54,734 nt of DNA from positions 12,093,282 to 12,148,015 of the forward strand of contig NC_057749.1 of the NCBI RefSeq assembly GCF_004010195.1, given 5' to 3'. The notes below the pieces were generated by a model, which worked only from the letters and a program-made list of their open reading frames with translations, did no database searches and had not been told where the DNA came from. This document shows, one piece after another, positions 1 through 50,904 of the stretch. The stretch's first letter is position 1. Every line of letters starts with the position of its first letter. Source of the DNA: Chiloscyllium plagiosum (lineage: Eukaryota). Made by a program: the position numbers and the translations under genes.

Positions 1-922
1 TCTATAGACAGACAGACACTCACACATACAGTGTACACTGCCACAGACACCCTCTCACAGACTTATACCCCTTTACACTCACACACTCATAACCACCTCC
101 CCCTGTCCCACGCACACACCCACATGCACATATACATATTTAAGTTTGTGGGGTGAATTTGTATTTTAAGAACTAAATTTTACTTTGCTGAAAAACCGCA
201 TGAATCCATGTAAGATTCTATACATTTTTTGGATGAGAATCAGTCTGACAATTGGTGGCACAGACAAGCTCACACAGGGAAACTCACACCTTTAATACAT
301 TATCTGGGCCGACATGACACCAATTGTTAAAGTTCACTTGAAAATGTAACTTCTAAAAAAGACATTTTGCAATTTACATATTAAAGAACTGAAACCGACA
401 TGATCATTCTAAAAGATGAGAGACTTAACAAACAACCCAGGTCTTTTTCAATATATAATTTCAGTTACATCACACTATAAACTTTTGCGGCACAGTGGCT
501 CAGTGGTTAGCACTGCTGCCTTGCAGCGCCAGGGACACCGGTTCGATTCCAGCCTCGGGCGACTGTTTGCGTGGAGTTTGCATGTTTACCCTGTGCCTGC
601 GTGGGTTTCCTCCAGGTGCTCCAGTTTCCTCCCACAGTCCAAAGATGTGTTGGTCAGGTGAATTGGCCATGCTAAATTGTCCATAGTGATAAGTGCATTA
701 GTAGGCAGTAGGTGCGTGGGTTACTCTGAGGGTTGGTGTAGACTTGTTGGGCCAAAGGGCCTGTTTCCGCACTATAGGAAACTAGTCTAATCTAAAAAAA
801 CCTCCGAGTCTTATAGTCTTATTCTCCACAGCCACCTGATGGAGGAGCAGTGCTCTGAAAGCTAGTGCTTCCAAATAAACTTGTTGGACTATAACCTGGT
901 GCTGTGAGATTTTTAACTTTGT
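1..922 (+). mobile_element. 3' non-coding part of a probable Penelope-like repeat, split by a SINE
   Basis: CA-rich low-complexity start. Ends with a hammerhead-like motif CAC-CTGATGG-A-GGAGC-AGT-GCTCT-GAAAGCTA-GTG (833-867) followed by AATAAA. Confidence 0.5.
488..800 (+). mobile_element. HE1-type tRNA-derived V-SINE
   Basis: Pol III A box TGGCTCAGTGG (~497) and B box GGTTCGATTCC (~540); V-domain-like gtggagtttgcatgtt...cctcccacagtccaaagatgtg; CR1/HER1-like tail gggccaaagggcctgtttcc...tctaatctaa. Confidence 0.85.
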
Positions 923-924
923 CG

Positions 925-2404
925 ATAGGAGTTCTTGAAGAATTGTGACTCTTCATAACAGCAGCTTCTTCTGAGCAAGGATCTCCCATGCAATAACATC
1001 GGTGTTGGATTTCCCAAGAGAAGCCTTCAAAGAGACATTGAAAAGCTTTTGTTCTTCTCCAATTTGAGCGTGTCCCTTGAGCTGAGCAAAGATGATTTGC
1101 TTTGGCAGTCGGAACTCAAGCATCATAAGTACACGGCCAACTCAAAAGAGTTGGTTTTGGATGATCACAGCCTCGATCCTGGTACTGTTAGCTATTTCAA
1201 GGACAATCATGTTAGTATGCTTATCCTCTCAGCTGATGCAGAGAACCCATTTCAAACAGCTTTGGTGGTATTTCTCAAAAGATCTTGAGCTGGAATTTTT
1301 ATGTAACCAAAGTCTCGGGGCCATACAGAAGAGTCAAAGGATGACTGCCTGGAAAAAGGATCCTGGTATCAGCACAGATGTCACAGTCAAAGACTCTCAT
1401 TCTTGGGAGACTGAAGGCAGTGCTCACAGGTTGGATGTGATGTTGAATCTCAGCATCAATGTGAGCCTCAACCAAAAAGTAGCTTCCCAGGTAGGGGAAT
1501 TGCTCCATGTTTGGCAGGATTTCTCCATTCATCTTAAATAGAGGGACGGACTGGAAGTTGACCTGGGCTGGATTATTTAGGATTTGACTTCTTTGAGTTC
1601 AGACAGAAGCCAGTTCTCCAGTGTGTTGCTGCATAGGCATTAAGCAAGGCTTGAAGATTCTCTTCCAAGAGAACAGAGATGACATTGTTATCTACATACA
1701 GAAGTTTCACAAGCGAGGCCATGTCATTTTCCTCTTAGATTTCAGCCGGTTCAGTCCAAGATCATCTCTAATGGGGAGTTGGAGGATTTCATCAAATACG
1801 TTCTCGCCGACTATTGCAATTTGGTTTAAGAGTTCTTTGAAATATTGTCTCCATTGCAGGCTGACATTTTCTCAGTCTGTCTCTCAAAAGGATGCCAAGC
1901 TTCGTCTATATTGGTTTGAGGCCAAGGGTGTTGAGTCTGTACATCACCTTGGTGGCGCTGAGGAAACACCAGGTGTCATGCTCGTCAGCAAGGACTTGCA
2001 GCTCCTTAGTTTTGTCAGTTTACCATTGGTTCTTGATTTGCCTAGTCCTTCTTTGTAACTCCGCCTTTGCAGCTGATGAATTCTCCTCTTTGCCTTGATG
2101 TTACTTTTTGCCTTCTTATTGTTGATGAGGTCTTAGATGACATGGTCATTGTCAATGAACCAGTCTGTGTGTTTCCTGGTCTTGTAGCTCATGGTTTTTT
2201 CACAACATGAGAAGATCTTCAGCTCTTTCCAGATTTGCTCCACTCCATTAAAATGAATGCTTTGGAGATTTGGTGAAAATATTTTGAAGTTTGCTAATTT
2301 GCTCGACTTTTGAAGCAGCTGAATGTTGCGCTTTTTCTGAACTGTTTCTTAGGCTTCAGCTGCTTCTCTTTTTCTGGATTAAAACCTTTAAAAGATATCT
2401 GGCC
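925..2404 (-). mobile_element. Decayed RTE-clade LINE
   Basis: Minus-strand peptides DWFIDND..I.DLINNK, LQWRQYFKELLN and NGEILPNMEQFPYLGSY..AHIDAEIQHHIQ resemble RTE ORF segments; many stops and deletions. Confidence 0.75.
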
Positions 2405-6060: not shown

Positions 6061-6490
6061 AACTTTATACAAGGACTGCACAAAACACTACATAGGACAA
6101 ACAGGAAGACAGCTAACGATCTGTATCCATGAACACCAACTAGCCATGAAAGACACGACCAGCTATCCTTAGTAGCCACACACACAGATAACAAGCAACA
6201 TGAGTTCGACTGGGACAACACTACTATTATAGGACAAGCCAAACAGAGAACAGCCAGGGAATTCCTAAAGGCTTGGCACTCATCCACAGATTCTATCAAC
6301 AAACACATCGACCTGGACCCAATATACCAGCCACTGCAGCGGAAGCGGCAGAGACAAACCACTATAAATGCCGGAGGAAACAACACAGAAGCGCTTCACA
6401 GGAGGCTCCCAAGCACTGAGGATGTCACCTAAACAGGGGATGAAACGTCTGCAACACAAATTCCCAGCTTGGCGAACAGAACCACAACAA
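6061..6490 (+). mobile_element. Penelope-like element 3' fragment (GIY-YIG end plus terminal repeat) inside L1 ORF2
   Basis: KDCTKHYIGQTGRQL...EFDWDNTTIIGQAK..REFL.AWHS; same family as 18907-20034. Confidence 0.88.
6413..6452 (+). ncRNA. Minimal type-I hammerhead ribozyme motif (PLE-associated)
   Basis: GCA-CTGAGGA-T-GTCACCT-AAAC-AGGGGAT-GAAACGTC-TGC; stem I GCA/UGC, predicted GUC cleavage triplet. Confidence 0.7.
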
Positions 6491-7295
6491 GGAAAAATAT
6501 TTTAGTGAATTGGGTAGCTGAAGGCCCTCCAGGACTTTCAAACTGGCACAAGTTAGTCATGGAATATATCCCCCTTGACTTCCTCACAAATATGGTGCAC
6601 CAAAAATCGGAATTATTCTATAAAACACGGCAGCCCTTTTTGAACTACATCGACACAGATATTTCGGCATATTGTCCAGGGCTTTTGACTGGCTGTGGTA
6701 ATGGTTCTGGCTGGTTCAGGGACCCTCAGGAGGAGGAATCCCGTATAAATACGGGTTTTATGATGACTTGATGTAAATCTATTTTGAGCATGTATCTAGT
6801 TATTTAATTATTTCGTTGTTTATCGCTAGCAATGTATGATATTCTATTTTATGTTTTGGTTGTTTGTAGGATAGATTAGTAGTTAGTTGGGCTTTTCTTT
6901 CTTATTTGGTTATTATTTATTCTTTCTTATTTATTTATTTAATGTTACATTGATGTTTATACTTGTTGGTATTACTTTAAAATTTTGTAAAAAATCTTAA
7001 AAATTTTCTTTTTTCAAAAAAAACCTATATTAAAAAAAATCTGGCCAAACAACGTCTTTGCAAAGTACACAGCTTTACTGCTTCAACATCTACAGAGAAA
7101 TAAATGAGAAATTTGAATACAGAGGCCAATTACTTCATTGCTCTTGCTCTTCGAACCGAAGCAAATTGTTCCATGAAATGGTTGGTGGCTGTGTTAGAAA
7201 AGTGCAAGTCATATTTGAAATTTATAAAGTCTACTAGTAGATGGCAACAGATGCTACATTATTCTACATTGATGGACAGACTGTAACTGGATTCA

Positions 7296-7428
7296 TTGAG
7301 GAGAAAGTGAGGTCTGCAGATGCTGGAGATCAGAGATGGAAATGTGTTGCTGGAAAAACGCAGCAGGTCAGGCAGCATCTAGGGAACAGGAGAATCGACG
7401 TTTCGGGCATTAGCCCTTCTTCAGGAAT
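7296..7428 (-). mobile_element. Short hammerhead-bearing PLE-derived insertion
   Basis: TSD CTGGATTCA at 7287-7295 and 7429-7437; about 4 differences from the copy at 19172-19295. Confidence 0.85.
7393..7428 (-). ncRNA. Minimal hammerhead ribozyme motif, intact core
   Basis: Minus strand: ATTC-CTGAAGA-A-GGGC-TAAT-GCCC-GAAACGTC-GATT. Confidence 0.72.
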
Positions 7429-8374: not shown

Positions 8375-11300
8375 AGAGAGAACCAGTGAGTGAGAGTCAG
8401 GGAGTAGTGTGGCACTAGTAAAAACACAGCACATCAAGCAGCATCCAAGGAGCAAGAGAGTCAATGTTTCGGGCGGAGAAAATAGGGCCTGTCCTTTGGC
8501 CCTTGATGCTGCGCCGATCTGTGAAACCAATCTAAAGCTCATCTAAACTACACTATTCCATTATCATTCATATTTATCCAGTGACCATTTAAATGCCCTT
8601 AAAGTTGGCGTGTCCACTACTGTTGCAGGCAGAGCATTCCAAGCTCTTACTACTCTGAGTAAAGAACCTACCTCTGGTATCTATCCAATATCTGTCACCC
8701 CTCAATTTATAGCTACGTGCCATTGTGCTAGCCATTACCGTCCAAGGAAAAAGGCTCTCACTGTCCACCCTATCTAATCCTCTGATCATCTTATACGTCT
8801 CTATTAAATCATCTCTTAACCTTCTTCTAACGAAAGCAACTTCAAGTCCCTCTGCCTTTCCTCAAAACTCCTCCCCCTACATACCAGGCATTATCCTGTT
8901 AAATCTCCTCTGCACCCTTTTCAACGCTTCCACATTCTTCCTATAATGCAGCGACCAAAACTGTATGCAATGCTCAAGTGCGGCCGCACCTGCACTGCAA
9001 CATGACTTCATGGCTATGAAACTCAGTCCCTCTACTAATAAAAGTTAACACACCATATGCTTTCTAAACAATCCTATCAACCTGGTGGCACCTTTCGGGG
9101 ATCTATGCACATGGACAGAGATATCGCTGCTCATCCACACTATCAAGAATTTTACCATTAGCCCAGTACTCTGCATTCCTTCCAAAGTGAATCACCTCAC
9201 ACTTTTCCGCATTAAACTCCATTTGCCACCTCTCAGTTCAACTCTGCAGCTTATCTATGTCCCTCTATAACCTGCAACATCCTTCCGCACTGTCCACAAC
9301 TGCACTCATCCAGGTCACTTATAAAAATGACAAACAGCAGTCACCCCAAAACAGATCCTTGCGGTACACCACTGGTAACTGAACTCCAGGATGAACATTT
9401 CCCATCAACCACCACCCTCTGCCTTCTTTCAGCTCACCAATTTCTGATCCAAACCACTAAATCACCTTTAATCCCATGCCTCTGTATTTTCTACAATAGC
9501 CTACGACGGGGAACCTTATCAAACGCTTTATTGAAATCCATACATACATTAACTGCTTTACCCTCATCCACCTGTTTGGTCACCTTCTCAAAGAACTCAG
9601 TAAAGTTAGTGAGGCACCTTTTTGTGACCTACCTTTCATAAAAACATGTTGATTATCCCCAAACCAAATTATTCACTTCGAGAGGAGTATAAATCCTCTC
9701 CCTTATAATCCTTTCCAAAACTTTGCCCACAACAGAAGCAAGGCTTCTGGTCTTTCATTACCAGGGTTGTCTCTATTCCCCTCCTGAACAAGGGGTCAAC
9801 ATTTGCTATCCTCCAATCTTCTGGCACTATTCCAGTGGACAATGATTACATAAAGATCAAAGCCAAAGGCTCTGCAATCTCCTCCCTGGCTTTCCAGAGA
9901 ATCCAAGGATAAATCCCACCCGGCCCAGGGGACTTATCTATTTTCACACTTTCCAGAATTGTTAATACCTCCTCCTTATGAACTTTAATCCCATCTAGTC
10001 AAATAGCGTGCATCTCAGTATTCTCCTCAACAACATTGTCTTTTTCCTTTGTGAATACTGACGAAAAATATTCATTTAGCACCTCTCTTATCTCTTCGTA
10101 CACCATGCACAATTTTCCACTACTGTCCTTGACCAGCCCTAATCTTACTCTAGTCATTCTTTTATTCTTGACATAACTAAAGAAAGCTTTAGGGTTTTCC
10201 TTTATCCTACCTGCCAATGACTTCTCATGTCCCCTCCTGGCTCTTGTTAGCTCTCCCTTTAGGTTCTTCCTAGTTAACTTGTAGCTCTCAAGCACCCTAA
10301 CTGAGCTTTCACGTCTCATCTTTACACATGCCTCCTTCTTCCTTTTGACAAAAGATTCAACTTCTTTAGTAAACTACGGCTCCCTCGCTCGACCACTTAC
10401 TCCCTGCCTGACAGGTACATACTTATCAAGGACAAGCAGTAGCTGTTCCTTGAACAAGTTCCACATTTCAATTGTGCCCATCCCCAGTAGTTTCCTTCCC
10501 CATCCTATGCATCCTAAATCTTGCCTAATCGCATCATACTTTCCTTTCCCCCAGCTATAACTCTTGCCCTGTGGTACATACCTATCCCTTTCCATTGCTA
10601 AAAGTAAACCTACTCAAATTGTAGTCACGATCACCAAAGTGCTTACCTACCTCCAAATCTAACACCTGACCTGGTTCATTACCCAGTACCAAATCCAATG
10701 TGGCCTCGCCCCTTGTCTACATACTGTGTCAGGAAACCATCCTGTACACATTAAAAAACTGACCCATCTAAATTACTTAAACTATAGTGTTTCCAGTCAA
10801 TATTTACAAAGTTAAAGTCCCCCTAAACAAATACCCTGTTACTTTCGCTCCTTTCCAGAATCATCTTTACAATCCTTCTGTCTATATATCTGGAAGTTTT
10901 CAAAGGCTATAGAAAACACCCAAAACGGTGATCTCTCCTTTCCTGTTTCTAACCTCAGCTCGTACTACCTCAGTAGACGAGACCTCATCAAACATCCTTT
11001 CTGCCATCGTAATACTGACCTTGATGAGCAATGCCACACCTCCCCCTCTTTTTACCACTTTCCCTGATCTTACTGAAACATCGAAATCCCAGAACCTGCA
11101 ACAACCATTCCTGTCCCTGCTATATCCAGGTCATAACACATAAGCCCTTCATCAGCAATGTGAAGGCAGAAGGAGGCTGAGAGATAAATAAGGGGGTGGG
11201 AACGCCCCATCTTTGCCTCAGGACCCTAGAACCACACGGTATCAATACTGACTTCACCAGTTTCCAATCTCCCAACCCCTCCCCTGCCTTATTCCGAACC

Positions 11301-11545
11301 AAATCCTACAGCTCATCACCACCCTCTTGACCTGACCTCCCTGTCCATCTTCCTTCCCACCTGCCCATTCCACCCTTCCCACTGACCTATCACAATCAGC
11401 TCCCGTCCTTGCGCCCCCCACCCCACATTCTGGATGCTCAAAACATCGACCCTCCTGCTCCTTGGATGCTGCCTGATCTGCTGTGCTCTTTCCAGTGCCA
11501 CATTTTCAACTCTGACTCTCCAGCATCTGCAGTCCTCACATTTTC
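8375..11545. mobile_element. Fold-back PLE-derived repeat (8375-8474 plus 11139-11545) split by the CR1
   Basis: Left half ends gtttcgggc and right half resumes ataagcccttcatcag; the inverted terminus ccttggatgctgcctga...ctccagcatctgcag is at 11460-11545. Confidence 0.7.
8476..11135 (-). mobile_element. CR1 (HER1-like) LINE, ORF2 APE-RT remnant with 3' tail
   Basis: Minus-strand peptides IKENPKAFFSYVKNK, KSPGPGG and IRGLDRVDSESLFP; conserved tail gggccaaaggac at ~8490. Confidence 0.9.
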
Positions 11546-12525
11546 ATATTCAGGGAGTAGGTGGATCGGCAAAAGAAGGGTTAAGGATGAGGGCAGTCTA
11601 CTTCAAAATGGCAGTAATCAGGTCACACACTGGTGAGAAACTGCATTTTATCTCATGATGTTAAACAAGATTACAGATCCTATGAACTTACCGAAGATAA
11701 TGTAAAACAATGTTAAAAGGGGCAACCTAAAACAGGTACTTACGGCAATATATAATTTAGATATCTATGCAAAGAAATAATCCTATTCTACAGCTTGTGC
11801 CCAGACAACTGAAACAATATAACCAGAAAAGGAAATGTAGAAGCAACTGATCGATCAAGAACAAATGCAACTCGAGTTGTTCCAGAGAATAGGACAGTAT
11901 AGAAAAAAAGAAAATAAATAGGAACACTGGAAAACAGTGGACAAATCGAAGGTATTACAAATGTACAAGATTTCCATCAATATCTGGACAAAGATAACCA
12001 TCTCTTCTCATTCACATACTGCCATTTCCAATATTTCCTGTTTTAGTAAAAAAAAAAGTGACACACTGAGATGGCTCTGCAAAGTATGACTATTATTTCG
12101 TAATCATTTCAGCACTTTGTTCTTTCAGTTCATGTCACTTGTCACTTGAAACATTTTAGTACCCAGTACAGATTTATAATGCCCTTCCATTATTATCTGT
12201 ACTTAAAACACATTCTCCACAAATATAAGATAAGTTTTCATCTTTCCTCTGAATGCAAAACTCTTGCTGCAGTTGTAACTCAATCATCTCTTAGAGGTAA
12301 GAGTGCTACCACTCAGTTAAACTAAACTGCAACAATATTGAATCACATCAGTTGGCTAGAATTTTTACCTACTCATTTTTATAAGGACATTAATTGGTAG
12401 CATTGAGTAATTGAGTATCATCTTGTTCAGTCCAAGGTGGTGTTCAACAAACAGCTTCCTTGAAATTTTAATGTTATTTTTAAAGTGAAAAGTTTGTTTG
12501 AATATCTTTTAACTTGTACATATCA

Positions 12526-13683: not shown

Positions 13684-13837
13684 TAAAAACAGGAATTGCT
13701 GGAGAAACTCAGCAGGTCTGGCAGGATCTGTGGTGAGAAAGCAAAGTCAACATTTCAGGTCCAGTGAGTCTTTAAAAGTTCTGAACAAGGATCATTTCTC
13801 ACCACAGATGCTGCCAGATTTGCTCCGTTTCTTCAGC
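13684..13837. repeat. Short fold-back repeat related to PLE termini
   Basis: gctggagaaactcagcaggtctggcagg...ctgtggtgagaaa pairs with tttctcaccacagatgctgccagatttgctc; related to 41590-41640. Confidence 0.6.
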
Positions 13838-14109: not shown

Positions 14110-15547
14110 CCATTACAAAGGGATCTTGATCAAATGGGTCAATGAGCTGAAAAATGACAGATGGAGTTCAATTTGGATAAGTACAAGGTATTGCATTTCG
14201 GTACAATAAACACAGGCAGGACTTATACAATTAACGGTTGGGACTTGGATGGTGTTGCAGAACAGAGAAGGACTTGGGTTCAGGTACACAATTCTTTGAA
14301 GTTTGCATCACATATAGACAGCGTGGATAAAAAGGTATTTAGCACGTTTGTCTTCATTGCTCAGTCCTTTGAGTACAGGGGTTGGGAAGACATGTTGCGG
14401 TTGCACAGGACATTGGTGAGGTCTCTTCTGGAGTACTGTGCGCAGTTCTGGTTGGCCAGTTGGAAGGATTTTATTAAGCTGGACAGGATTCACAACAGAT
14501 CTACAAAGGATGCTGCCAGATATGGCTTGAGTTATAAAGAAAAGCTGAATAGACTGAGACTGGAACGTAGAAGGTTGAGAGGTAACCTTAACGAAATTTA
14601 TAAAATCATAAGGGGTAAAGATAGGATTAATAGGTGGCGTTTTTTCCCCCCGAGGATAGGAAATTTCAAGACTAGGGGCACATTTTTAAGGTGAGAGGAG
14701 AGAGATTTAAGACAGACATGAGGGACTTTTTTTTAAACAAAGAGGATGGTTCGTATATGGAATGAATTTCCTGAGAAAGTGGTGGATGTCGGCACAGTTA
14801 CAATGTTTAAAAGACACTGAGGTAAGTACATGAATGAGAAATGTAGGAAGGATGTAGGAGCAGGAAGGTGGGACTCGCTTAGCTTGAGATATGTTTGGCA
14901 TGGTTGGACTGAAAGAGAAAGCGAGGACTGCAGGTGCTGGAGATCAGAGTTGAAAAGTGTGGTGCTGGAAAAGCACAGTAGGTGCAACAGCATCCAAGAA
15001 GTAGGAGAATCGACAGTTTGGACATAAGCCCTTCATTAGGAATGTGTGCGGTGGGGGGAGAAGGAAGAGAGAAGGGCGCTGAGACATAAATGGGGGTGGG
15101 GGGGGCGGAGGTAGCTGGGTGGAGGGTTGAGCGGACAGGTTAGACAGTTCAGACAGTTCAAGAGGGTGGTGCTGAGTTGGAGCGTTGGATCTGGGATGAG
15201 GTATGAGGAGGGGAGATGAGGAAACTGGTGAAATCGACGTTAATGCCGGGTGGTTAGAGGGTCCCAAAGCGGAAGAGGAGATGTTCTTATATGTCCTTGG
15301 CAGAGTGGGAAGGGGAATTGAAGTGGTCGGCCACAGGGCGGTGGGTTGCTTGGTCCGTGTGTCCCAGAGATGTTCCCTGAAACATTCCACAAGTTGGTGT
15401 CCTATCTCCCCAATATGGAAACCATCAAGAGTAACAGACGCAGGAAAATCTCTGCGGATGTTGAAGGATCCTTTGTGGCCTTGGATGGAGGTGAGGGGGA
15501 TTAAACGTTGGACTGAAGGGTCTGTTTCTGTGCTGTATGACTCTAAG
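14110..15547 (+). mobile_element. CR1 3' fragment, tail interrupted by a PLE piece
   Basis: MEFNLDKYKVLHFG...LVRSLLEYCAQFW...LERRRLRGNL; tail resumes at 15507. Confidence 0.88.
14914..15506 (-). mobile_element. PLE 3' fragment (GIY-YIG remnant, degenerate hammerhead)
   Basis: TSD GTTGGACTGAA at 14903-14913 and 15507-15517; minus-strand HIGEIGHQLVECFREHL. Confidence 0.8.
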
Positions 15548-15564: not shown

Positions 15565-16205
15565 AGAGTCATAAGAGATGTACAGCACGGAAACAGACCC
15601 TTCGGTCCAAACCATCCATGCCGACCAGATATCCCAATCCAATCTCGTCCTACCTGCCAGCACCCGGCCCATATCCCTCCAAACTCTTCCCATTCATATA
15701 CCCATCCAAATGCCTCTTAAATGTTGCAATTGTACCAGCATCCACCACTTCCTCTGGCAGCTCATTCCATACACGTACCATCCTCTGCGCCAAAACGTTG
15801 GCCCTTAGGTCTCTTTTATATCTTTCCCCTCTCACCCTAAACCTATGCCCTCTAGTTCTGGACTCCCCGACCCCAGCGAAAAGACTTTGTCTATTTATCC
15901 TATCCATACCCCTCATAATTTTGTACTGTGACTCCACTTTCAAGGAGCTGTAAACCTGCATTCCAAGGTCTCTTTGTTCAGCAACACTCCCTACGACCTT
16001 ACCATGAAGTGTATAAGCCCTGCTAAGACTTGCTTTTCCAAAATGCAGCACCTCGCATTTATCTGAATTAAACTCCATTTGCCACTTCTCAGCCCACTGG
16101 CCCAGATCCTGTTGTAATCTGAGGTAACCCTCTTCGCTGTCCACTACACCTCCAATTTTGGTGTCATCTGCAAACTTACCAACTGTACCTCTTATGCTCG
16201 CATCC
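15565..16205 (-). mobile_element. CR1 3' fragment with internal deletion
   Basis: KFADDTKIGG...WQMEFNSDKCEVLHFG...RTRGHRFRVRG; tail ...ctgtacatctcttatgactct. Confidence 0.9.
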
Positions 16206-28256: not shown

Positions 28257-28639
28257 TCAGATGACTGGCCTGTATTTACTGGGCTTATCCTTACACCCTT
28301 CTTTGAACAGATATGTAATATTTAGAATTCTTCAGTTCTCCGGTAAATTTAATGGGAATATATGATTAAAAAAACTAAAACAGATCCCTCCCATGCCTAG
28401 GATCAGCCTGCTGAACTTTCTCGGGACTGGTACCAATGTCAATATATCTTTCCTTAAATAAGTGAACCAAAACTGTTCACAGTATTCCAGCTGTGGTCTA
28501 ATGAAAGCCTCAGCTCCATCAGCTTTCTCACTCAGACATCTCTAGCGATTTTATCTTCCACCTTCTGACTTACAGGTACTACTAGAATGATTTTTCAGTT
28601 TTCTATAGAGAAGACTAATGTTATTTCATTTGTCACTTA

Positions 28640-35044: not shown

Positions 35045-36465
35045 AGGTCTCTTCCTGGACCTCTCCATCTCCATTTCCAGCAACTGACTCAACATGGACA
35101 TATCCTTCAAACCCACTGACTCCCCCAGCTACCTGGACTACACTTCCTCCAACCCAAACTCCTGTAAAAAAACGCTATCCCTTACTCCCAATTCCTCCAC
35201 CTCCACCGCATCTGCTCCCAGGAGGACCAATTCCACCATAGAACATCCCAGATGGCCTCCTTCAAGGACTGCAAATTCCCCTTCCACGTGGTCAACGATG
35301 CCCTCCAGCATATCTCCTCCACTTCCCATACCTCCACCCATCACCTTCAACCCCACCAACCTCCACCATTTCCACCATCAACAAGCAGACTCCACCACCA
35401 GAGATATATTTCCCTCCCCACTCCTATCTGCGTTCTGCAAAGTAATTTCCACTGTGACTCCCTTGTTAGGTCCAGGCCCCCACCAGCCCACCCTCCACTC
35501 CAGGCACTTTCTCTTCTCACCGCAGGAGGTGTAAAACCTGTGTCCACACCTTCCCCCTCACCTCCACCCAAGGCCCCAAAGCATCCTTCCACATCTGGCA
35601 GAGATTTTCCTGCACCTCCAAAACCTAATCTACTATCAAGAGTGTGGTCCTGGAAACGCACAGCACGTCAGGCAGCATCTGAGGATCAGGAAAATTGACG
35701 TTTCGGGCAAAAGCCCTTCATCAGGAATTCCTGAAGGGCTTTTGCCCAAAACGTCGATTTTCCTGCTTCCTCAGATGCTGCCTGACCTGTTGTGCTTTTT
35801 CAGCACCACACTCTTGACTCTAAACTCCAGCATCTGCAGTACTCACTTTTGCCATCTACTGTGTCTGTTGCTCTTGATGTGGTGTCCTCTACACTGGGGA
35901 GACAGGACGCCAACTCACAGAACATTTCAGAGACCATCTCTGGGACACACGTACTAAACAACCCCATTGCCCTGTGGCCCAACACTTCAATTTCCCCTCC
36001 TACTCCAAGGACATGCAAGTCCGAGGCCTCTTCCACCACCAGATCCTAGCCACCTGGATGCCTGGAGGAAGAGCGTTTCATTTTCCACGTTGGGGACCCT
36101 CCAACCACATGGAATCAATGTTGATTTCACCAGTTTCCTCATCTCCCCTGCCCGCACCTTATCCCAGATCCAACTCTCCAACTCGCCACTGCCATCTTGA
36201 AGTGTGCTCCCTGTCCAGCTTCCTTCCCACCTATCTGCTCCACCCTCCACTCTGACCTATCACCATCACCACACCACATACCCCACCTTCATCTACCGAT
36301 CACATTCCCAGCTACCTTCTCCCCAGCCCCTCCCATTTATCTCTCAGCCCCCTTGGGCCTCCCTCACATCCCTGAAGAGCTTATGCTTGAAATGTTGACT
36401 CCCCTGCTCCTTGGATGCTGCCTGACCGGCTGTGCTTTTCCAGCACCACACGTTTTGACTCTGGC
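35045..36465 (+). mobile_element. Penelope-like element, RT thumb plus GIY-YIG plus 3' terminus, decayed
   Basis: FKPTDSPSYLDYTSSNP.SCK; LIYCVCCS*CGVLYTGETGR after removing the insert; LGTLQPHGINVDF; degenerate hammerhead at ~36368-36400. Confidence 0.85.
35635..35853. mobile_element. Palindromic hammerhead-bearing insertion nested in PLE
   Basis: ~90-bp inverted arms meeting at GAATTC (35725-35730); TSD ATCTACT at 35628-35634 and 35854-35860; minus-strand core CTGATGA-A-GGGC-TTTT-GCCC-GAAACGTC. Confidence 0.85.
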
Positions 36466-38332: not shown

Positions 38333-39254
38333 ACACAGTTATGTAGTTTAGTATTGAAATGAAACTGTCTGATTTTAGTCAGTTTCTGAAGCCCTTCAAA
38401 AGTCAATTCTAGCATGTAAGCAGTATTATCAGTTAGGTATGAGTCTTGAACATAATTATAGGAGGAGCTGTGCCATTGAGGAGAACATGAGTTTGAACTT
38501 CAACATAGATAAATGGGAGGTACCACATTTTGTAGCAAAAGTAGAAAGGCAGGTTTAACAACGGGTTTAAAAATAAAAGCTAAGCAGTAATGCTCTGGTT
38601 TGAAGGAACAGAATGGAGAAGGTATTTTAAAGTTGTTATGACATGGGGTCAACCCCTCAATTTAAACCAGCAACGCAGAAAAGATTCACCCCATGCTGTA
38701 ATCTGATAAAATTCGAGAGATAACCCAAAAGTCTAATAAAAATTAACAACATTTTTTAAAGTCTAACAGTGAATAACTAACTAACAACTCCTCTCTCTCT
38801 CTCTCTAAATCTATCTTTTACCTTTCCCTCTGCAATACTAGTTCGATACAAAATCCTGATTACCATTTACAAAAAAATATAACCACGTTTCAAAACCAGT
38901 CAGCTTTGCAGATTTTCTCTCCAGGTCAGCCTCGATATTCTGCTGCCCAGGCTTCCTCCATCGACAGGTATCTCTCAGAAAGCTCTTAAACTAGCAGTCT
39001 ACATCTGTTGGTCATTTGGCAGCTCTCCCTTCTGGCTAACTGTTCAAAATGTCTGATATTTATATCCCAAAACATAAGATCATTTCGTTGGTTTTAATAT
39101 TATCAAACTGGATTGGAGTTTTGAATCTTGGGGCATAATTTCAACACATTGGCCGAATCTGAATTTGTTTTTTTGTCTCATAGCAACCCAGCTACTCCTA
39201 GCTCTTCGACCAAATGTTACACTGTTTTACATCTCTTGCAGTGACAAGAGAACC

Positions 39255-39965
39255 ACATTTCTTGGTGTACACCTGGTGGAGTCTCACCTGGACCCTCAAC
39301 ACCAGCTCCATAGCCAAGAAAGCCCAGCAGCGTCTCTACTTTCTGTGTAGGCTCAGGAAAGTCCATCTCCCACCCCTCATTCTCACCACATTCTACACGG
39401 GGTTCATTGAGAGTATCCTGAGCTGCTGCATCACTGCTTGGTTTGGGAATTGCACAGTCTTAGATCGCAAGACCCTACAACGGATAGTGAAGACAGCTGA
39501 GAGGTTCATCGGGGTCTCTCTGCCCTCCATTACAGACAGATCACACGCTGCATCCAAAAGGCTCAGAGCATTGTGGAAGACCCCACACATCCCTCACTCA
39601 AACTCTTTTCCCTCCTGCCATCTGGCAGAAGATACCAACGCATTCAGTCTCTCATGGCCAGACTGTGCAACAGTTTCTTCCCCCAAGCCATCAGGCTCCT
39701 TAACACAATAAGATCAGACACTTTCCCATCTGAAAATTTTTGTATGACTGAATTGCTGCTAGAAAAAAATCTATTATTTATCATTCTTCTATTACACTCT
39801 AACTTGTGTTTTGCACTTGTTATGCATTTTATGATATATACAATGTGTAGTTTCTGCTGTCCATGTAGCACCCTCGGTTCTGGAGGAATGCTGTCTCATT
39901 TCTACTGTATCATTTGTATATGGTAGAAATGACAAATAAAAACTTCTCTCTCTCTCTCTCTCTCC
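39255..39965 (+). mobile_element. Rex1/Babar LINE 3' fragment
   Basis: FLGVHL, WTLNTSSIAKKAQQRLYFL.RLRK, IESILSCCITAWFGNC, LQRIVKTAE, HPSLKLFSLLPSGRRY; ends AATAAAA then (CT)n. Confidence 0.85.
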
Positions 39966-41100
39966 CCAATGCCAGCACACCTTTCCTTAGATACAGGGCC
40001 CAAAAACTGCTCAAAATATTCCAAATATGGTCTGACCTGAGCCTTATACAGCCTGAGCAGTACATCGCCTCTCTTGGATTCCAGCTCTCTTGAAACGAAT
40101 ATGAACATTGCATTTGACTTCTTCACTAGCAAATGAACCCGCATGTCAACCTTAACAGAATCCTGAACCAGGACTCCCAAGTTCCTTTGTGCTTCAGAGA
40201 GTCATAGAGATGTACAGCATAGAAACAGACCCTTCAATCCAACTTGTCCATGGCAACCAGATATCCTAAATTAATCTAGAGCCATTTGCCAACATTTGGC
40301 CCATAGCCCTCTATACCCTTCCTATTCATATACCCATCCAGACTGTTAAATGTTATAATTGTACCTGCCTTAACCATTTCCTCTGACAGCTCATTCTGTA
40401 CATGCACCACCTTCTGCTTGAAAAAGTTGCTCCTCTGGTCCCTTTTAAGTCTTTCCCCTCTCACCTTAAACCTATGCCCTCCAGTTATGAACTTCCCCAC
40501 CCTGGGGAAAAGACCTTAACTGTTCATCCTATCCATGCCCCTCATCATTTTATAAACCTCTGTTAAGGTCACCCCTCAGTCTCTGAAGCTCCAGGTAAAA
40601 TAGCTCCAGCCTACTCAGCCTCTCTCTATAGCTCAACCATGGCAACATCCTTGTAAATTTTTTCTGAACCCTGTCAAGTTTCTCAACATCTTTCCTATAA
40701 CAGGGAGACCAGAACTGAATGCAGTATTCCAAAAGTGGCCTAACCAATGTCCTGCACAGCTGCAACATGACCTCCCAATTCCGATACAGAATACAATGAC
40801 CAATAAAGGCAAGTGTGCCAAATGCCTTCTTCACTATCCTGTCAACTTGTGACTCCACTTTCAAAGGACTGCAAACCTGCACTCCAAGATCGCTTAGTTC
40901 AGCAACACTCCTCAGGATCTTACCATTTCCAAAGCCTTTCCTCTTTGGAAAAAAGTCTCTGCCTTTATTCTTCCTCACATTTTTCCACATTATATTCCAA
41001 CTGCCACTTCTTTGCTCATTCGCTTATCATGTCCAAGTCCTTCTGAAACCTCTCCACCTCCTCAAAACTGTCCATCCACCTAGCTTTGTGTCATCAGTGC
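39966..41100 (-). mobile_element. Two nested CR1 fragments (inner copy ~40197-40925)
   Basis: Outer GVLVQDS.KV subfamily interrupted by a copy with tail ctctatgactct and LVRPLLEYCIQFWSP. Confidence 0.82.
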
Positions 41101-41650
41101 AAAATGAGGTGCTGTGCTTCCAGGTTATGCTAAGCTTCACTGGAGCACTGTAGCAAACCTGAGACTGATCTGGACCAAGGAACAAGGTGGTGTGTTGAAA
41201 TGCCATTGTAAGAACAGCACCTCATTTTCTGTTTGGGGACCTTCCAGCTTTCTGGACTCAATATCAAGTTAAATAACTTTAGGATTTGAGCTCTCCCATG
41301 TCCTTACCCCACCCCGACACTCCGGGCCTTGTTACCTGCTATTACATGCAACCCATTGTCAGCCAATAACAGTCCCCAGTAATAGCTATTCACACTCTTA
41401 GCCATATTGTTATCCACTCCTTTGTCTGTTCAACTGATTTTCTCTCTCTTTGGGCTCTATACCCATGTGTCATTGACACCTTAACACTACCCCCCCTCCC
41501 CCAAACCTACCTTCTACATATAAACTGACATATTCCTAGCTACCATAAGTTCTGAGGTAGGGAGACTTGACCCGAAATGTTAATTCTGATTGCTTTCCAC
41601 AGATGCTGCCAGACCTGCTGAGCTTTTCCAGCAATTGCTGATTTTATGCT
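41100..41650 (+). mobile_element. PLE terminal remnant with degenerate hammerhead
   Basis: LGTFQLSGLNIK-like end; CTGAGGT-AGGGAG-ACTT-GACCC-GAAATGTT at ~41552-41585. Confidence 0.55.
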
Positions 41651-42145
41651 TTCTCTTTAGTGATGCCCACAACACTGACCTCAGACCCCTGACTCTCGAA
41701 GTTCTGGGATGCTGCTGGTGTCTTTCACTGTGTAAACTGAGGTAAAATACCTACTGAATTACTCTGCCATTTCTTTGTTCCCTATTACTACTTCACCAGC
41801 CTCATTTTCCTGCAGTCCAAGGTCTCGCTTTTACCTTGCAGGTAACTAAAAAATCTGTTGCAATCTTCTTACATATTACTAGCTAGCTTACTCCCATAGA
41901 TGATCATCTCCCCTTTCACTGCTTTTAAAAGCTTCGCAATCCTCTGGCTTTGCATTAATCTTCACCACATTGCATGTTGTTTTTTTTTACTTTAATGCTG
42001 CCTCCGACTTCTTTCATAAGCCATGGTTGCCTTAGTATGCTGCTTCTTCCTTGGGGTGAAGTTCTGCTGTGCCTAAATTACCCCCAGAAGCTCCTATCAT
42101 TGCTACTCCACCATCCTCCCTGCTTGGCTCCCTGTCTAATCAACT

Positions 42146-42341
42146 AGGTAAATGCTGCAGATGCTGGAAACCAGATTCTGGATTAGTGGTGCTGGAAAAG
42201 CACAGCAGTTCAGGCAGCATCTGAGGAGCAGGAAAATCGACGTTTCGGGCAAAAGCCCTTCATCAGGAATACAGGCAGAGTGCCTGAAGGGTGGAGAGAT
42301 AAATGAGAGGAGGGTGGAGGTGGGGAAAAAGTAGCATAGAG
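42146..42341 (-). mobile_element. Short hammerhead-bearing PLE-derived insertion
   Basis: TSD TAATCAACT at 42137-42145 and 42342-42350. Confidence 0.85.
42235..42270 (-). ncRNA. Minimal hammerhead ribozyme motif, intact core
   Basis: Minus strand: ATTC-CTGATGA-A-GGGC-TTTT-GCCC-GAAACGTC-GATT. Confidence 0.75.
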
Positions 42342-43064
42342 TAATCAACTCTGGCCAGTTCCTCCCTCCTGACTTTGTAGTTACCTTAATTGTAATACCA
42401 TTACCATCTGATTCAGTCTTCTCCCTCTCACACAGCAGGGTGAATTCTATCACATTATGGTCACTGCCCCTAGGAATTCTTTCACCTTAAACTCCCTAAT
42501 CCAGTCTGCCTCATTATATATCACCAAATCCAGAGTTGCCTGTACTCTAGTGGGCTTTACCACAAAGTATTCCAAAAAAAACTCAGATATTTCACAAAAA
42601 CTTTTTCTTGAGATCTGCTACTAACTTGACTCTCCCAGTCCACCTGCATATTGAGGTGCCCCATGATGATTGTATTAGTGCCTTTCTTACACGTCTTTTC
42701 TATTTCCTGATTTATTTTCTTCTCCACATCCTCACCACTGTTAGGAGGCCTGCACACAACTCCCATCATGGTCTTTTCTCCTTTGAAGTTCTTCAAGTTT
42801 ACCCACACAGATTCCATTCCTTCCAAATCAATAGCTCTTGTTATTAATTTAATTTCATTCTTACAAACAAGGCAACAGTGCCCCATCTGCTTGTCTATTC
42901 AATAAGACATATATCCTTGGTTATTTAGTTCCCAACCCTGATTGCCCTGTAGCCATATCTCTGACAACAACATCGTACCTGCCAATTTGTGTTACAAGCT
43001 CATCTACCTTGTTTCGTATACTGTGTGCAATGAAATATTTTTTGTCATTTACATAAATGATTTG

Positions 43065-43239
43065 CAAGGCTTGTGAAGGTTTGTAGCTCAGGTTGAGGTT
43101 TAGGGTGTAGGTTTGCTCGCTGAGCTGTAGGTTTGATATCCAGACGTTTCACTTGGAGGTCGCCACTGATGATGTTACCTAGCCAGGTAATGAAACGTCT
43201 GGATATCAAACCTACAGCTCAGTGAGCAAACCTACACCC
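43065..43239. mobile_element. 175-bp fold-back mini-element with hammerhead
   Basis: TSD CATAAATGATTTG at 43052-43064 and 43240-43252; ~48-bp inverted repeat (~43104-43151 / 43191-43239). Confidence 0.88.
43163..43202 (+). ncRNA. Minimal hammerhead ribozyme motif, intact core and stems
   Basis: CCA-CTGATGA-T-GTTACCT-AGCC-AGGTAAT-GAAACGTC-TGG; stem I CCA/UGG, 7-bp stem II with one G-U pair. Confidence 0.8.
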
Positions 43240-45032
43240 CATAAATGATTTGGATGTGAGCATAACAGGTACAGTTAGTAAGTGAAACTTGAAAGGGTTC
43301 AGAAAAGATTTACAAGGATGTTGCCAGGGTTGGAGGATCTGAGCTACAGAGAGAGGCTGAACAGGCTGGGGCTGTTTTCCCTGGAGCGTCGGAGGCTGAG
43401 GGGTGACCTTATAGAGGTTTACAAAATTATGAGGGGCATGGATAGGATAAATAGGCAAAGTCTTTTCCCTGGGGTCGGGGAGTCCAGAACTAGAGGGCAT
43501 AGGTTTAGGGTGAGGGGGGAAAGATATAAAAGAGACTTAAGGGGCAACTTTTTGATGCAGAGGGTGGTATGTGTATAGAATGAGCTGCCAGAGGAAGTGG
43601 TGGATGCTGGTACAATTGCAACATTTAAGAGGCATTTGGATGGGTATATGAATAGAAAGATTTTGGAGGGATATGGGCCGGGTGCTGGCAGGTGGGACTA
43701 GATTGGGTTGGGATATCTGGTCGGCGTGGACGGGTTGGACCGAAGGGTCTGTTTCCATGCTGTACATCTCTATGACTCTAAGTACAACAGCCTCAGTCCT
43801 GCATGGACTGCCCCCCCATTATCATTGTTGTCTGTTCATCTGATTTACCTGAACTCAGATTCCTGACCCTTTCTATTCTGTGTTACTACTTTTTGTGAAA
43901 CTTGAACCTTTGCTTAGCCCTTCCCCCTTTAACTTTTTGCATAATTTTCCAAGCAAATGAAGCCTCCACACACTATTTAGTATCAAGTCTCATCCACAGC
44001 TCTACTCATGCAACTGGCCAGAACTTTGGTTCCAGCATAATTCAGGTGGAGCCTATCCCATCGCAACAGCTGCTCCCTTCCCCAGGACAAGTGCCAACAT
44101 CCCACGAATTTGAGTCCATTTCTCACACACTAATCTTTGAGCTATGTTTACTTCTTTAGTTTTGTTGGCCCTGTGCCAATTTGTGACTCACACAGTAATC
44201 CAGAGATTACCATCTTTTTGGTTTAGGTTTTAAATTTAGCCCCGAGTTACTCATATTCCCTCAGCAGACTCTCTTTCCTCATATATCGTTGGTATCTATA
44301 TGGATTATGAAAACTGGATATTTCCCCTCCCACTCCAAACTCCTCTACAGACGGATAGATATCCTGAACCCTGACACCAGGCAGGCAACACAGCCTATTG
44401 GGTCTCTTGGCTACAGAGAACAGTATCTATTCCCTTGACTATACAATTCCCGATTACAACTTCATTTCTCTTGTCTCTCCATACTATGATGCTGTGGTCA
44501 ATTTGCTCATCCTCCATACAGCCAGAATCTCATCCATACAGAGAGCAAAAATCTCAAATCTGTCAGACAGATCTGGGACTGAGGCTCTAGATCTTTCTAC
44601 TTGCCCCACTCATAGTTACATCATTCTGTCCATGACCACTGATGAAATTTAAGCTCATTAATCTAAGGGGTGCAAATGCCACCTGAAACATAGCTTCAAG
44701 GTAATTCTCCCCTTTTTATTGCATCGTAGTGTTTGAAGTTCAGACTCCAGCTCAACAGCCAGAGATCCTCAAACAACCAACACTTGCTACAGATATAGTC
44801 ACTACAAACCACAATGGGTTCCAACAGCTCCCATGTCATGCAATTATAAAACATTACCCTGCCTGACATTCCTGTTTTAAAATTACTTGATTCTTGATCT
44901 GATTTTTAAAAGTTTCATACTGGTCTTTCAGTTTGCAGCCTACAAATTTTGCCCTCATTTCCCTTCAATCTGGAAGTAACCTGTATAGATAGTCAAATTA
45001 GGAACTATCACCAACTGATGAACTTGTAGTTT

Positions 45033-46800
45033 ATAGAGTCAAAGATGTACAACATGGAAACAGATGCTTCGGTCCAACTTGCCCATGCCGACCAGATATC
45101 CCAACCCAATTGAGCCCCATCTGCCAGCACCTGGCCCATATCCTTCCAAACCCTTCCTATTCATATACCCATCCAGATGCCTTTTAAATGTTGCAATTGT
45201 ACTAGCCTCCACACCACTTCCTCGGTCAGCTCATTCCATACATGTATCACCCTCTGCATGAAAAAGTTGCCCCTTACGTTGCTTTTATATCTTTCCCTTC
45301 TCACCCTAAACCTATGCCCTGTAGTTCAGGAGTCTCCCACCTCAGGGAAAAGACTTTGATCAGGTCCTGGGGATTTATGCACCTTTACACATTTTAAGAC
45401 ATCCAGCACCTCCTCCTCTGTAATCTGGACATTTTTCAAGGTATCACCATCTATTTTCCCACATTCTGTATCTTCCATATTCTTCTTTACAGTAAACACT
45501 GATGCAAAATACTCATGTAGTACCTCCCACACCTCCTGTGGTTCCACACATAGGTGGCCTTGTTGATCTTTGAGGAGACCTATTCTCTCCTTTGTCACCC
45601 TCTTGTCCTTAATGTATTTGTAAAAACCCTTCGGATTCTCTTTAACTCTATTTGCCAAAGCTACTTCATGTTCCTTTTTGGCACTCCTGATTTCCCTCTT
45701 AAGTAAACTCCTACTGCCTTTATACTCTTCTAATGATTCAATCGATTTCTATTGTCTATACCTGACATATGCTGCCTTCTTTTTCTTAACCAAAACGTCA
45801 ATTTCTCTAGTCATGCAGCGTTCCCTACACCTACCAGCCTTTCTTTTCACCTTAACAGGAATATACTGTCTCTGGACTCTCTCTCATTTCTGAAGATTTC
45901 CTGTTTTCCAGCCATCCCTTTACCTGCGAACATCTACCCCCAATCAACTTATGAAAGTTCTTGCCTAATACCGTCAAAATTGGCCTTTCTCTAATTTAGA
46001 ACTTCAACTTTTAGATCTGATCTATCTTTTTCCATCACTATTTTAAAACTAATAGAATTATGGTCACTGGCCCCAAAGTGCTCCCTCACTGACACCTCAG
46101 TCACCTGCCCTGCCTTATTTCCCAAGAGTAGGTCAAGTTTTGCACCTTCTCTGGTAGGTACATCCACATACTGAATCAGAAAATTGTCTTGTACACACTT
46201 AACAAATTCCTCTCCATCTAAACCCTTAACACTATCGCAGTCCCAATCTGTGTTTGGAAAGTTGAAATCCCCCATGATTAACACCTTATTATTCTTACAG
46301 ATAACTGAGAGCTCCTTCTGAATTTATTTCCCAATTTCCCGTTGACTATTGGAGGGGTGGTCTATAGCACAATCCCAGTAAGGTGATCTTCGTTTTCTTA
46401 TTTCTCAGATCCATTCAAATAACTTCCCTGGACGTATTCCCAGGAATATTCTCCCTAAGTACAGCTGGAATGCTCTCCCTTATTAAAAATGCCACTCCCC
46501 CGCCTCTCCTGCCCCCTTTCTATCTTTCTGATAGTATTTGTATCCTGGAAGATTAAACTGCCAGTCCTGTCCATCCCTGAGCCATCTCTGTAATTGCTAT
46601 GATATCCCAGTCCTATGTTCCTCGCCATGCCTGTCTCGGTTAGGCTTCTTGCATTGAATTAAATGTAGTTTAATTTATCAATCCTACCTCGTTCTCTGCT
46701 TTGTTCCTGTCTGCCCCAACTGTTTGACTTGCTCCTTTTCTCAATCGTACTCGTCTCAAACTGATCTCTATCCTCACTATCAAGCTGTGATGTCACTCTT
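45033..46800 (-). mobile_element. CR1 with APE, tether and 3' end; RT core deleted
   Basis: IMGDFNFPNTDW, HFGASDHN, KENPKGFYKY; KSPGPD joined directly to QSLFP at ~45357. Confidence 0.88.
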
Positions 46801-49791: not shown

Positions 49792-50045
49792 TCACTGGTT
49801 ATCTGTTGAAGTTTACAGAGTTTCAGGGTGCACAATATTAAACTACTTATTTTTATTTGGTGGCATAAATTACCATTTATCGCTTAATTTTGGCAGCTTA
49901 TCTTCGCACCTTTATGGCAGTAACATTGAAGGGAGTGATAGAAAAGACACATCTTAAGGTCATATTGCAATTAAACAGTCGAGATACAAACGAAACTAGG
50001 TGAATGCCCAATGTCAATGCCATTTTTTCAGATGTGGAATTTATC

Positions 50046-50322
50046 TGGTTTACACTAATTCCTCGAAGCACCAGGGAACCAGATTCCAGCCTTGGGTGAC
50101 TGGGTGTGGAGTTTGTATGTTCTCCCAGTGTCTGTGTGGGTTTTCGCTGGCTACTCCGTGTTCCTCCCACAGTCCAAAGATGTGCAGGTTAGATGAATTG
50201 GCCATGTTAATGCAGGATTATGGGGATAGGGTGGGGGCTTGGGTCTGAATGGAATTAGCTTCAGAGGGTTGGTGCAGACTTGATGGGCTGAATGGTCTCT
50301 TTCCACACTGTAGGAATTCCAG
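50046..50322 (+). mobile_element. HE1-type V-SINE with decayed head
   Basis: gtggagtttgtatgttctccc...cctcccacagtccaaagatgtg...gggctgaatggtct. Confidence 0.8.
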
Positions 50323-50735
50323 AGGTTTGGACAAAAAAATAACATGCAATTTAATTACAGTTTCTCCTGGAAACATGTTTATTTTAATATGGATCTACCT
50401 AGTCTTCACGTACAAGCCTAAAAGCTGAACATCAGTAAACTATATTGACTGTAATCAAAATTGATGTTTGACTGACATCACCAGAGAGGTTAATCGTGCC
50501 CTTAGTCAACACCCATACAGACAATTTCCTGCAAAGGTCTGTGTTTAGCAGAAATCACAGTGGAGTGTAAGAACTCTTGTCTAATTCCAAGCTAGCCCAT
50601 GTGCATTTCAATGAGGTGGTGAACTGTTGGATCTCACTACCATTCCAGCAAGGATGAGCTAACTAACAACACCATGGGGAGACCTTGGGGCATTCTGGTC
50701 TTTATGGCTTAGAAGGTTGGCCCCTTTACCAAGCA

Positions 50736-50904
50736 AGGCAAAGCAAGGACTGCAGATGCTGGAGGTCAGAGTCAAGAGTGTGGTGCTGGAAAAGCACAGG
50801 TCAGGCAGCATCCAAGAAGCAGGAGAGTAGACATTTCAGGCAAAAACCTTTCGTTCAGGAATGCTGCCTGACCTGCTTTGCTTTCCCAGCACCACACTCT
50901 CACT
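50736..50904. mobile_element. Short fold-back PLE-derived insertion
   Basis: TSD CCTTTACCAAGCA at 50723-50735 and 50905-50917; inverted arms; degenerate hammerhead remnant at ~50830-50862. Confidence 0.82.

Follow-up and report, generated by a model that had tools for sequence, protein, structure and literature searches.

Predicted minimal hammerhead ribozymes in Penelope-like elements of Chiloscyllium plagiosum

A stretch of 54,734 nt of the Chiloscyllium plagiosum genome (assembly GCF_004010195.1, contig NC_057749.1, positions 12,093,282 to 12,148,015; hereafter the window) contains short recurring motifs with the layout of a hammerhead ribozyme. An earlier note, made from the sequence alone, read these as minimal hammerheads dispersed in at least four repeat families and attributed them to several lineages of Penelope-like elements, which raises the questions of whether the pattern is real, which repeats carry it and how often, and whether it can be expected to cleave. 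The motifs are very probably minimal type-I hammerheads (min-HHRs) located in the pseudo-long terminal repeats (pLTRs) of endonuclease-positive Penelope-like retroelements (PLEs), of which at least three lineages have been amplified. This reading is carried by the motif itself, its copy number, its position relative to the open reading frames (ORFs) of the PLEs, the insertion signatures, and the covariation of helices I and II.

Hammerhead motifs in the window and in the genome

The window was searched with the pattern CTGANGA-N(6-30)-GAAA-SS-T-H, which gave seven exact minimal type-I hammerhead motifs (6416+, 7397-, 19170+, 19924+, 35697-, 42239- and 43166+) against 0.17 expected, and none of 100 shuffles reached seven, which confirmed that the recurring pattern is real. 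In these seven copies the catalytic core C3 U4 G5 A6 N7 G8 A9 ... G12 A13 A14 is complete, and the A15.1-U16.1 pair, the palindromic 15.2-16.2 positions without loop 3 and the H17 triplet are likewise present. The palindrome and cleavage site read GAAACGTC (GUC) in the lineages designated A, B, C and E, and GAAAGCTA (CUA) in lineage D. One extra nucleotide after A9, which the earlier note had attributed to all copies, was indeed found in each of them, being A in lineages A and D and U in lineages B/C/E. Core variants U3-A8 and the palindromes AT/TA had no matches in the window.

Besides the seven exact motifs, two near-intact and approximately ten decayed copies were present. Using real copies as queries, blastn delineated 13 window pieces of lineage A, three B units, one C pair and one D unit, and thereby recovered the decayed copies reported near 15010, 36370, 41552 and 50830, as well as five further fragments (8409-8474, 11139-11195, 11434-11550, 13696-13759 and 35732-35849). 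The seven exact and two near-intact copies were read directly, and all previously reported coordinates were correct to approximately 3 nt. The copy reported at 18944 on the minus strand is present (core 18947-18980), but its palindrome is not intact, as it reads GAAATGTC, with ACGT broken by a C-to-T change. The copy at 833 on the plus strand (core 836-864) has the mutated A9 that had been described, changed to G, and also carries a C-to-T substitution on the 3′ side of stem II.

Four families with unrelated stem sets had been proposed. Unrelated stems were found for three lineages, with stem II being GGGC/GCCC in lineage A, GTYACCT in lineages B/C/E and GGAGC/GCTCC in lineage D, but the GTCACCT and GTTACCT sets did not prove unrelated. 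Lineages B (GTCACCT) and C (GTTACCT) share 67-71% identity over 73-106 nt in blastn and have the same type of endonuclease ORF upstream, and there are therefore three independent lineages and not four; lineage E, met in a sample of loci from the genome (numbered with the prefix L below), is a third relative of B and C. Lineages A, B/C/E and D had nothing in common beyond the hammerhead core (blastn, word size 7, E below 1e-3). The copies in the window are as follows.

803-922, plus strand: lineage D terminal unit, short-tail form; core 836-864, A9 to G, stem II C-to-T
6340-6493, plus strand: lineage B terminal unit; core 6416-6449, stem I GCA/TGC, G10.1.U11.1
7298-7426, minus strand: lineage A2 short unit of 129 nt, long-tail form; intact core 7397-7424, flanked by the duplication TGAATCCAG
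8409-8474, minus strand: lineage A fragment, beginning within the 3′ half of the hammerhead
11139-11195, minus strand: lineage A fragment, match limited to the part of the 3′ untranslated region (3′ UTR) upstream of the hammerhead (query 21-81)
11434-11550, plus strand: decayed lineage A copy
13696-13759, minus strand: lineage A fragment, belonging to the fold-back 13711-13824
14915-15498, minus strand: 5′-truncated lineage A element; A-type endonuclease remnant at approximately 15340-15498, decayed hammerhead and tail 14915-15041
18908-19043, minus strand: lineage B terminal unit; core 18947-18980, broken palindrome
19105-19596, minus strand: lineage B GIY-YIG endonuclease ORF remnant, interrupted by the A2 insertion 19166-19300
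19166-19300, plus strand: lineage A2 short unit inserted into the B element, with an intact core at 19170-19197 and 97% identity to 7298-7426
19612-20001, plus strand: inverted arm of the lineage B element; core 19924-19957
35470-35849, no single strand: head-to-head lineage A pair; minus arm 35643-35726 with intact core 35697-35724, plus arm 35732-35849 with decayed core
35470-35625, plus strand: A-type endonuclease remnant beside the head-to-head lineage A pair
35878-36464, plus strand: 5′-truncated lineage A element; endonuclease remnant 35878-36252, decayed hammerhead and tail 36323-36464
41549-41634, plus strand: decayed lineage A copy
42140-42330, minus strand: lineage A1 copy with 3′ UTR and long tail; intact core 42239-42266
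43076-43245, no single strand: lineage C head-to-head pair; plus arm 43150-43245 with core 43166-43199, inverted arm 43076-43151
50740-50896, no single strand: decayed lineage A copy 50740-50871 (minus) with a short inverted partner 50861-50896 (plus)

Two nested insertions were observed, one being the A2 unit at 19166-19300 within the endonuclease coding region of the B element, and the other, at locus L052, a lineage D unit within the hammerhead of the upstream A1 pLTR. Both give information on the relative order of activity.

Genome-wide counts were made on the 3.56-Gb assembly for exact cores only, with reversed-pattern controls giving 0 for all searches. Lineage A accounts for 87,506 exact cores, 21,180 of which have U at position 7 (subfamily A1), with approximately 76% being A2-type and lacking the AUG inside CUGAUGA. 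Lineages B/C/E contribute 12,420 cores and lineage D 18,502 (18,482 with a 3-nt loop and 20 with a 4-nt loop), bringing the genome to at least 118,428 exact cores. The real copy number is several times higher, because the exact core is kept in just four of the 13 lineage A pieces of the window. A lineage A unit (window 42155-42270) also matched 8,796 contig pieces at ≥90% identity, 853 of them at ≥99%, in a sequencing run labelled as another organism, and lineage A is thus common to at least one other species label.

Coding regions and insertion signatures

The motifs are located 100-250 nt downstream of ORFs encoding GIY-YIG endonucleases. The assignment to Penelope-like elements made in the earlier note was supported by these adjoining ORFs, and also by two-site 3′ ends, inverted partners and a pLTR layout. 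For lineage A, the sequence upstream of the copy in L016 proved to be the end of an ORF; its last 60 residues were compared with the genome, and the best 150 of 88,488 first-look candidates were scored. Two of the four ORFs taken to Pfam were above the GIY-YIG cut-off of 22.6 bits (24.7 and 24.9 bits in L043 and L053, respectively), with 20.2 bits in L048 and no GIY-YIG match in the L036 ORF. The domain sequence in lineage A is IIYCI.C.RC.LLYIGETGR...EH, preceded by a C-x4-C-x2-C stretch. A genome-wide Pfam GIY-YIG search gave a single weak match and was uninformative. When seven lineage A endonuclease fragments were combined into a profile, the GIY-YIG core was also detected upstream of hammerheads of B/C/E, namely in L066, L067, L075, L076, L077 and in the window at 19105-19596(-), with E values of 1e-11 to 1e-4, and this window remnant lies 130 nt upstream of the hammerhead at 18947-18980. 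The motif of the B/C/E ORFs is TNVVYKIPCKDC.KHYIGQTGR..IHEH, and the C-x4-C-x2-C stretch was not seen before the GIY-YIG motif in the B/C/E translations.

A candidate reverse transcriptase (RT) was found at L043, where a run of RT motifs is followed by the GIY-YIG domain, with the candidate RT ORF 0.8-1.1 kb upstream in another frame. Its RVT_1 score of 24.1 bits was one of two RVT_1 matches among 24 ORFs, the other being a LINE-type (long interspersed nuclear element) RT in L032, which is the L016 locus. The L043 ORF contains RYIDD, FLD and YKPT-type motifs, which we take to be of the PLE type. The Atlas clusters closest to it consist of RT proteins, most of them from rotifers, which serves as a lead only. 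For lineage D, a degenerate RT-linker ORF resembling that of lineage A was found at locus L087; the D hammerhead follows this ORF after approximately 340 nt, and an inverted D arm precedes it on the 5′ side. In the A1 loci L032, L033 and L036, the frame with the AUG of CUGAUGA is open across hammerhead and tail in some copies, and where the 3′ UTR is short the endonuclease frame reads across the hammerhead.

The window is also rich in LINE fragments, present on both strands as several related copies with RVT_1 and an ALKBH8_N-type C-terminal region, and Pfam searches of 16 long window ORFs gave LINE-type RVT_1 and ALKBH8_N matches only.

39202-39711 (plus), 51624-52100 (plus), 53173-53631 (minus) and 15650-16444 (minus): LINE fragments
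14560-14810, 24296-24557, 43321-43628 and 52572-52879: repeats belonging to the LINE fragments

The possibility that the RVT_1 match at 15650-16444(-) represents the RT of the lineage A copy next to it was considered and rejected, since the repeat at 15574-15925 recurs at 28635-28903, 40198-40561, 43413-43783 and 45033-45394, in all cases without a hammerhead. With this abundance of LINE sequence, and with one LINE RT fragment just upstream of the lineage A copy in L016, the motifs could be viewed as chance look-alikes in an ordinary tail of a LINE or short interspersed nuclear element (SINE), amplified by the LINE machinery. This is extremely improbable and already contradicted by the data: the same core occurs in three unrelated repeat lineages with different but complementary stems, the adjoining ORF encodes a GIY-YIG and not a LINE endonuclease, and in place of a poly-A or LINE-type 3′ end, which the copies lack, they display the two-site 3′ end and the inverted partners of PLEs.

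These insertion signatures were measured on 30 lineage A loci, in which homology reaches no further than approximately 170 nt on the upstream side of the core and 100 nt on the downstream side. Of the 3′ ends, 17 fell between +62 and +72 nt and ten between +97 and +100 nt, the remaining three being at +5, +36 and +121. The two main classes are approximately 34 nt apart, a distance that matches the optional 30-40 bp tail of PLEs. Published work describes pLTRs, inverted 5′-truncated copies and such a 30-40 bp tail for PLEs (PMC8557442, PMC11167929), and attributes the two 3′ ends of the Anolis element to two internal RT start sites (PMC11167929). At the 5′ side, 11/30 lineage A loci begin within 18 nt of the hammerhead core, 8/30 turn there into a head-to-head inverted copy and 11/30 run into the 3′ UTR or ORF. 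Target duplications of 7-15 bp surround six short copies (L003, L011, L012, L026, L030 and window 7298-7426), and one locus (L052) has a pLTR-ORF-pLTR arrangement, with 3′ UTR and hammerhead start, the ORF, and then 3′ UTR, hammerhead and tail. Lineage D has the same two 3′ ends and inverted partners, and many minus/plus pairs are present in the genome listings of B/C/E and D cores. Inverted 5′-truncated partners in the window were found at 35643-35849, 43076-43245, 18908-20001 and 50740-50896, with neighbouring copies being either inverted or far apart. Sequencing reads and contigs covering the A1 copy at 42100-42400 most often pass into unrelated sequence at 42185/42186, which corresponds to the short 3′ end, at 42155, which corresponds to the long end, and at 42268-42271, the hammerhead 5′ edge; their opposite-strand joints were located at 42264-42275. 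The observed 5′ ends suggest that the template RNA often ends at the hammerhead 5′ edge.

Short copies tend to start, and inverted pairs to join, within the 0-12 nt before CUGA, which is the hammerhead 5′ edge and not the cleavage site, as at the following positions.

Window: 7426, 19168, 35726-35732 and 43150
Genome loci: L003, L009, L011, L013, L026, L029 and L030

The elements would share a layout of RT, GIY-YIG endonuclease ORF, short 3′ UTR, hammerhead, approximately 60 nt and an optional tail of approximately 34 nt. Most copies would be dead-on-arrival tail ends, either 5′-truncated, very often at the hammerhead 5′ edge, or joined head-to-head to an inverted truncated copy.

Alternatively, the short units (approximately 100-135 nt in A2 and 90-125 nt in D) could form a separate non-autonomous class, either as non-LTR (long terminal repeat) retrozymes spreading via tandem arrays and circular RNA, or as SINE-like parasites of PLEs. 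We consider this improbable. The concentration of 5′ boundaries described above (11/30 lineage A loci starting within 18 nt of the hammerhead and 8/30 inverting there) would fit such a class, but heavy 5′ truncation and inverted partners are the normal PLE pattern (PMC8557442), and the window lacks any tandem array of hammerhead units, with Tandem Repeats Finder giving one unrelated 18-nt array. Copies with loop CTGT (CCTG in the full motif) or loop TAAT were only short or inverted in the sample, and approximately 76% of lineage A cores have no AUG in CUGAUGA (U7 in 21,180 of 87,506); against this, 19,049 A2-type cores are preceded by the 3′ UTR word CCTCATTC, which means that the sequence continues upstream, and endonuclease ORF remnants lie upstream of A2 copies in L021 and L022. 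A 2026 preprint derives animal retrozymes from PLE pLTRs (bioRxiv 10.64898/2026.07.22.740005), which is in favour of such a class. The short copies may simply be truncated tail-end copies of the PLEs and not separate non-autonomous lineages.

A further proposal, which we put forward tentatively and regard as doubtful, is that the sharp 5′ boundary marks an RNA 5′ end at the 5′ edge of the ribozyme, for instance due to a promoter in the downstream pLTR. Internal RT starts at fixed sites approximately 60-100 nt downstream would then yield hammerhead-headed units of 85-135 nt, and the approximately 100,000 short units would represent a self-sustaining SINE-like by-product or parasite of PLEs and not random truncations.

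Helix pairing and predicted cleavage

The earlier note also proposed that stem I covaries around a constant core, and in lineages B/C/E covariation of stems I and II was indeed above that of shuffled alignments. For 31 B/C/E copies (22 distinct rows and 10 pairs, the rows being related by descent, and the search pattern having fixed most of the helix II 5′ strand with the 3′ strand and both flanks free), standard pairs filled 90% of cells, compared to 33-44% with the 3′ partner slid, and the covariation score was 0.324 compared to 0.188 after shuffling, a value reached by none of 500 shuffles. The outer helix I pair was GC in 9, CG in 7, UA in 4 and UG in 2 rows, and one helix II pair was CG in 11, UG in 6 and UA in 4. 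Helix II was paired in 86% of cells in B/C/E, and G10.1-C11.1 is present in lineages A and D. At least three contiguous helix I pairs were present in 31/32 B/C/E copies, versus 0/32 when slid. Helix I is weak in lineage A, with at least three contiguous pairs in 6/44 copies, and 147/264 cells paired versus 28-68 when slid, and a lineage A subfamily with GAAT after the cleavage site has four helix I pairs.

In the dimer model taken from the literature, helix III would consist of the bare palindrome ACGU or AGCU, and a lone motif would be unable to fold because a palindrome without a loop cannot close helix III. Two motifs, either on one precursor or on two RNAs, would pair via the palindrome to form a dimeric ribozyme. 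In lineages A, B, C and E this dimer would cut after GUC and in lineage D after CUA, in both cases probably aided by the element protein. Self-cleavage by the copies described here is a predicted activity.

Several observations weigh against the assignment of these motifs to hammerheads of PLEs. Helix I is very short: copies of B/C/E have 3 bp, and those of lineage A have 2 bp, a U.U mismatch and then one A-U pair. Helix II is interrupted by an A.G mismatch in lineage B, and in lineage C the pair G10.1-C11.1 is replaced by G.U. When monomers and homodimers were folded by free energy, the helix III register of a hammerhead was not obtained. The Rfam hammerhead models, which the earlier note had named as a check, missed every copy in the window, and an Rfam scan of the window gave nothing at gathering scores and 13 weak matches at E values up to 10, none of them a hammerhead. 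A motif with a zero-length helix III would be expected to score poorly on hammerhead models. On the coding side, the RT was read from one degenerate copy (L043) with a Pfam score below the cut-off of 29.6 bits, and the tie of lineage D to a PLE ORF comes from a single locus (L087). Finally, 1,590 reads from one poly-A single-cell RNA run on the A1 copy at 42100-42400 revealed no position at which many molecules begin or end, in a library type that cannot settle cleavage; read depth was continuous over the predicted cleavage site, both strands were approximately equal, and 98% of the reads run into unrelated sequence. These reads look like read-through of dispersed copies and not like processed element RNA.

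Among the weak Rfam matches were mir-641, mir-722, mir-2007 and mir-1287, at 50775-50900, 35691-35760 and 13711-13824. MicroRNA genes at these positions were considered and rejected, as the hairpins are fold-backs of head-to-head PLE arms.

The very short helix I and the RNA reads without ends at the predicted cleavage site also fit a different explanation, in which the motif is kept in PLE RNA for another role, such as protein binding or as a signal in reverse transcription, or merely rides along, with no copy being a working ribozyme in vivo. We judge this to be unlikely. Published PLE min-HHRs were poor cleavers in vitro (PMC4209133), and in Anolis hammerhead mutants had no effect on element insertion in vitro, with no RNA-seq reads ending at the site (PMC11167929), making the hammerhead dispensable for insertion under those conditions; the same hammerhead, however, does cleave when its protein is added, and a C3G/G8C double mutant gives partial rescue (PMC11167929). 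PLE clades without hammerheads proliferate well, and the authors of that study raise the possibility that hammerheads simply parasitise PLEs (PMC8557442). Against another role stand the full core, NUH triplet and palindrome, which are identical across three lineages with unrelated flanks and stems, and the covariation of helices I and II.

Comparison with known hammerheads and significance

Lunse, Weinberg and Breaker are said to have described min-HHRs in metazoan Penelope-like elements, and De la Pena and Flores reportedly described, in 2001, viroid hammerheads in which A9 and G10.1 are separated by an extra base, these being type-III hammerheads with a full helix III in plant viroid RNA. 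The one extra nucleotide before helix II is common to those viroid motifs and the copies described here, the full helix III being found in the viroid motifs. No specific report on the present families or on min-HHRs in cartilaginous fishes was found in the literature covered, which excluded supplementary family lists.

The closest match is with the metazoan PLE min-HHRs of Cervera and de la Pena 2014 (PMC4209133), in which helix II is up to 7-8 bp long and helix I is short, position 9 is followed by one unpaired base and positions 15.2-16.2 are palindromic, with solitary copies next to opposite-strand pairs 100-700 bp apart, low in vitro activity and a dimer model. Shared with the copies in C. 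plagiosum are the type-I topology with CUGANGA...GAAA, the absence of a helix III loop, the palindrome and the unpaired base after A9, as well as a helix II of 4-8 bp, a short helix I, a pLTR site downstream of the probable RT-GIY-YIG ORF and a mostly solitary occurrence, with some opposite-strand pairs. By contrast, the families described here differ in sequence, comprise at least 118,428 exact cores, and have two to three contiguous helix I pairs, at the short end of the range. Every feature listed in the earlier note is already part of the 2014 description, and the families are new members of a well-described class.

Compared to the Anolis carolinensis Poseidon element PAc (PMC11167929), the position of the hammerhead at the pLTR-ORF junction and the two 3′ ends 30-40 bp apart are similar. 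The distance from AUG to cleavage site is approximately 25 nt in lineage A1, with the AUG inside CUGAUGA, versus 26 bp in PAc, the A1 AUG being a candidate ORF start. In contrast to the Poseidon assignment of PAc, the C-x4-C-x2-C linker of lineage A is assigned to the Neptune and Nematis clades (PMC8557442), and the clade call is tentative. Animal non-LTR retrozymes (PMC7229834; bioRxiv 10.64898/2026.07.22.740005) likewise have type-I hammerheads that need a second copy, kinship with PLE pLTRs and small non-coding units, but occur as head-to-tail arrays and circular RNAs, whereas the present copies are scattered, either alone or inverted, show target duplications and form no array in the window. 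The 2026 preprint sampled one chondrichthyan for retrozymes, and PLEs have been reported to be expanded in the genome of a shark (bioRxiv 10.1101/443036).

The finding leaves the current picture of Penelope-like elements unchanged. It extends the catalogue of min-HHRs by three PLE lineages, comprising several subfamilies and found in a large genome of the shark type, with a copy number at least 10 times the highest figures quoted in the founding paper (approximately 4,000 motifs in coelacanth and 9,000 in Xenopus; PMC4209133). Annotation based on Rfam is blind to the approximately 118,000 exact motifs, so that members of this class have to be sought with descriptors. The numerous copies that are recent and nearly identical, together with the covariation series (GC, CG and UA in helix I, and CG, UG and UA in helix II), would provide material for the question of whether PLE hammerheads cleave as dimers or require the element protein.

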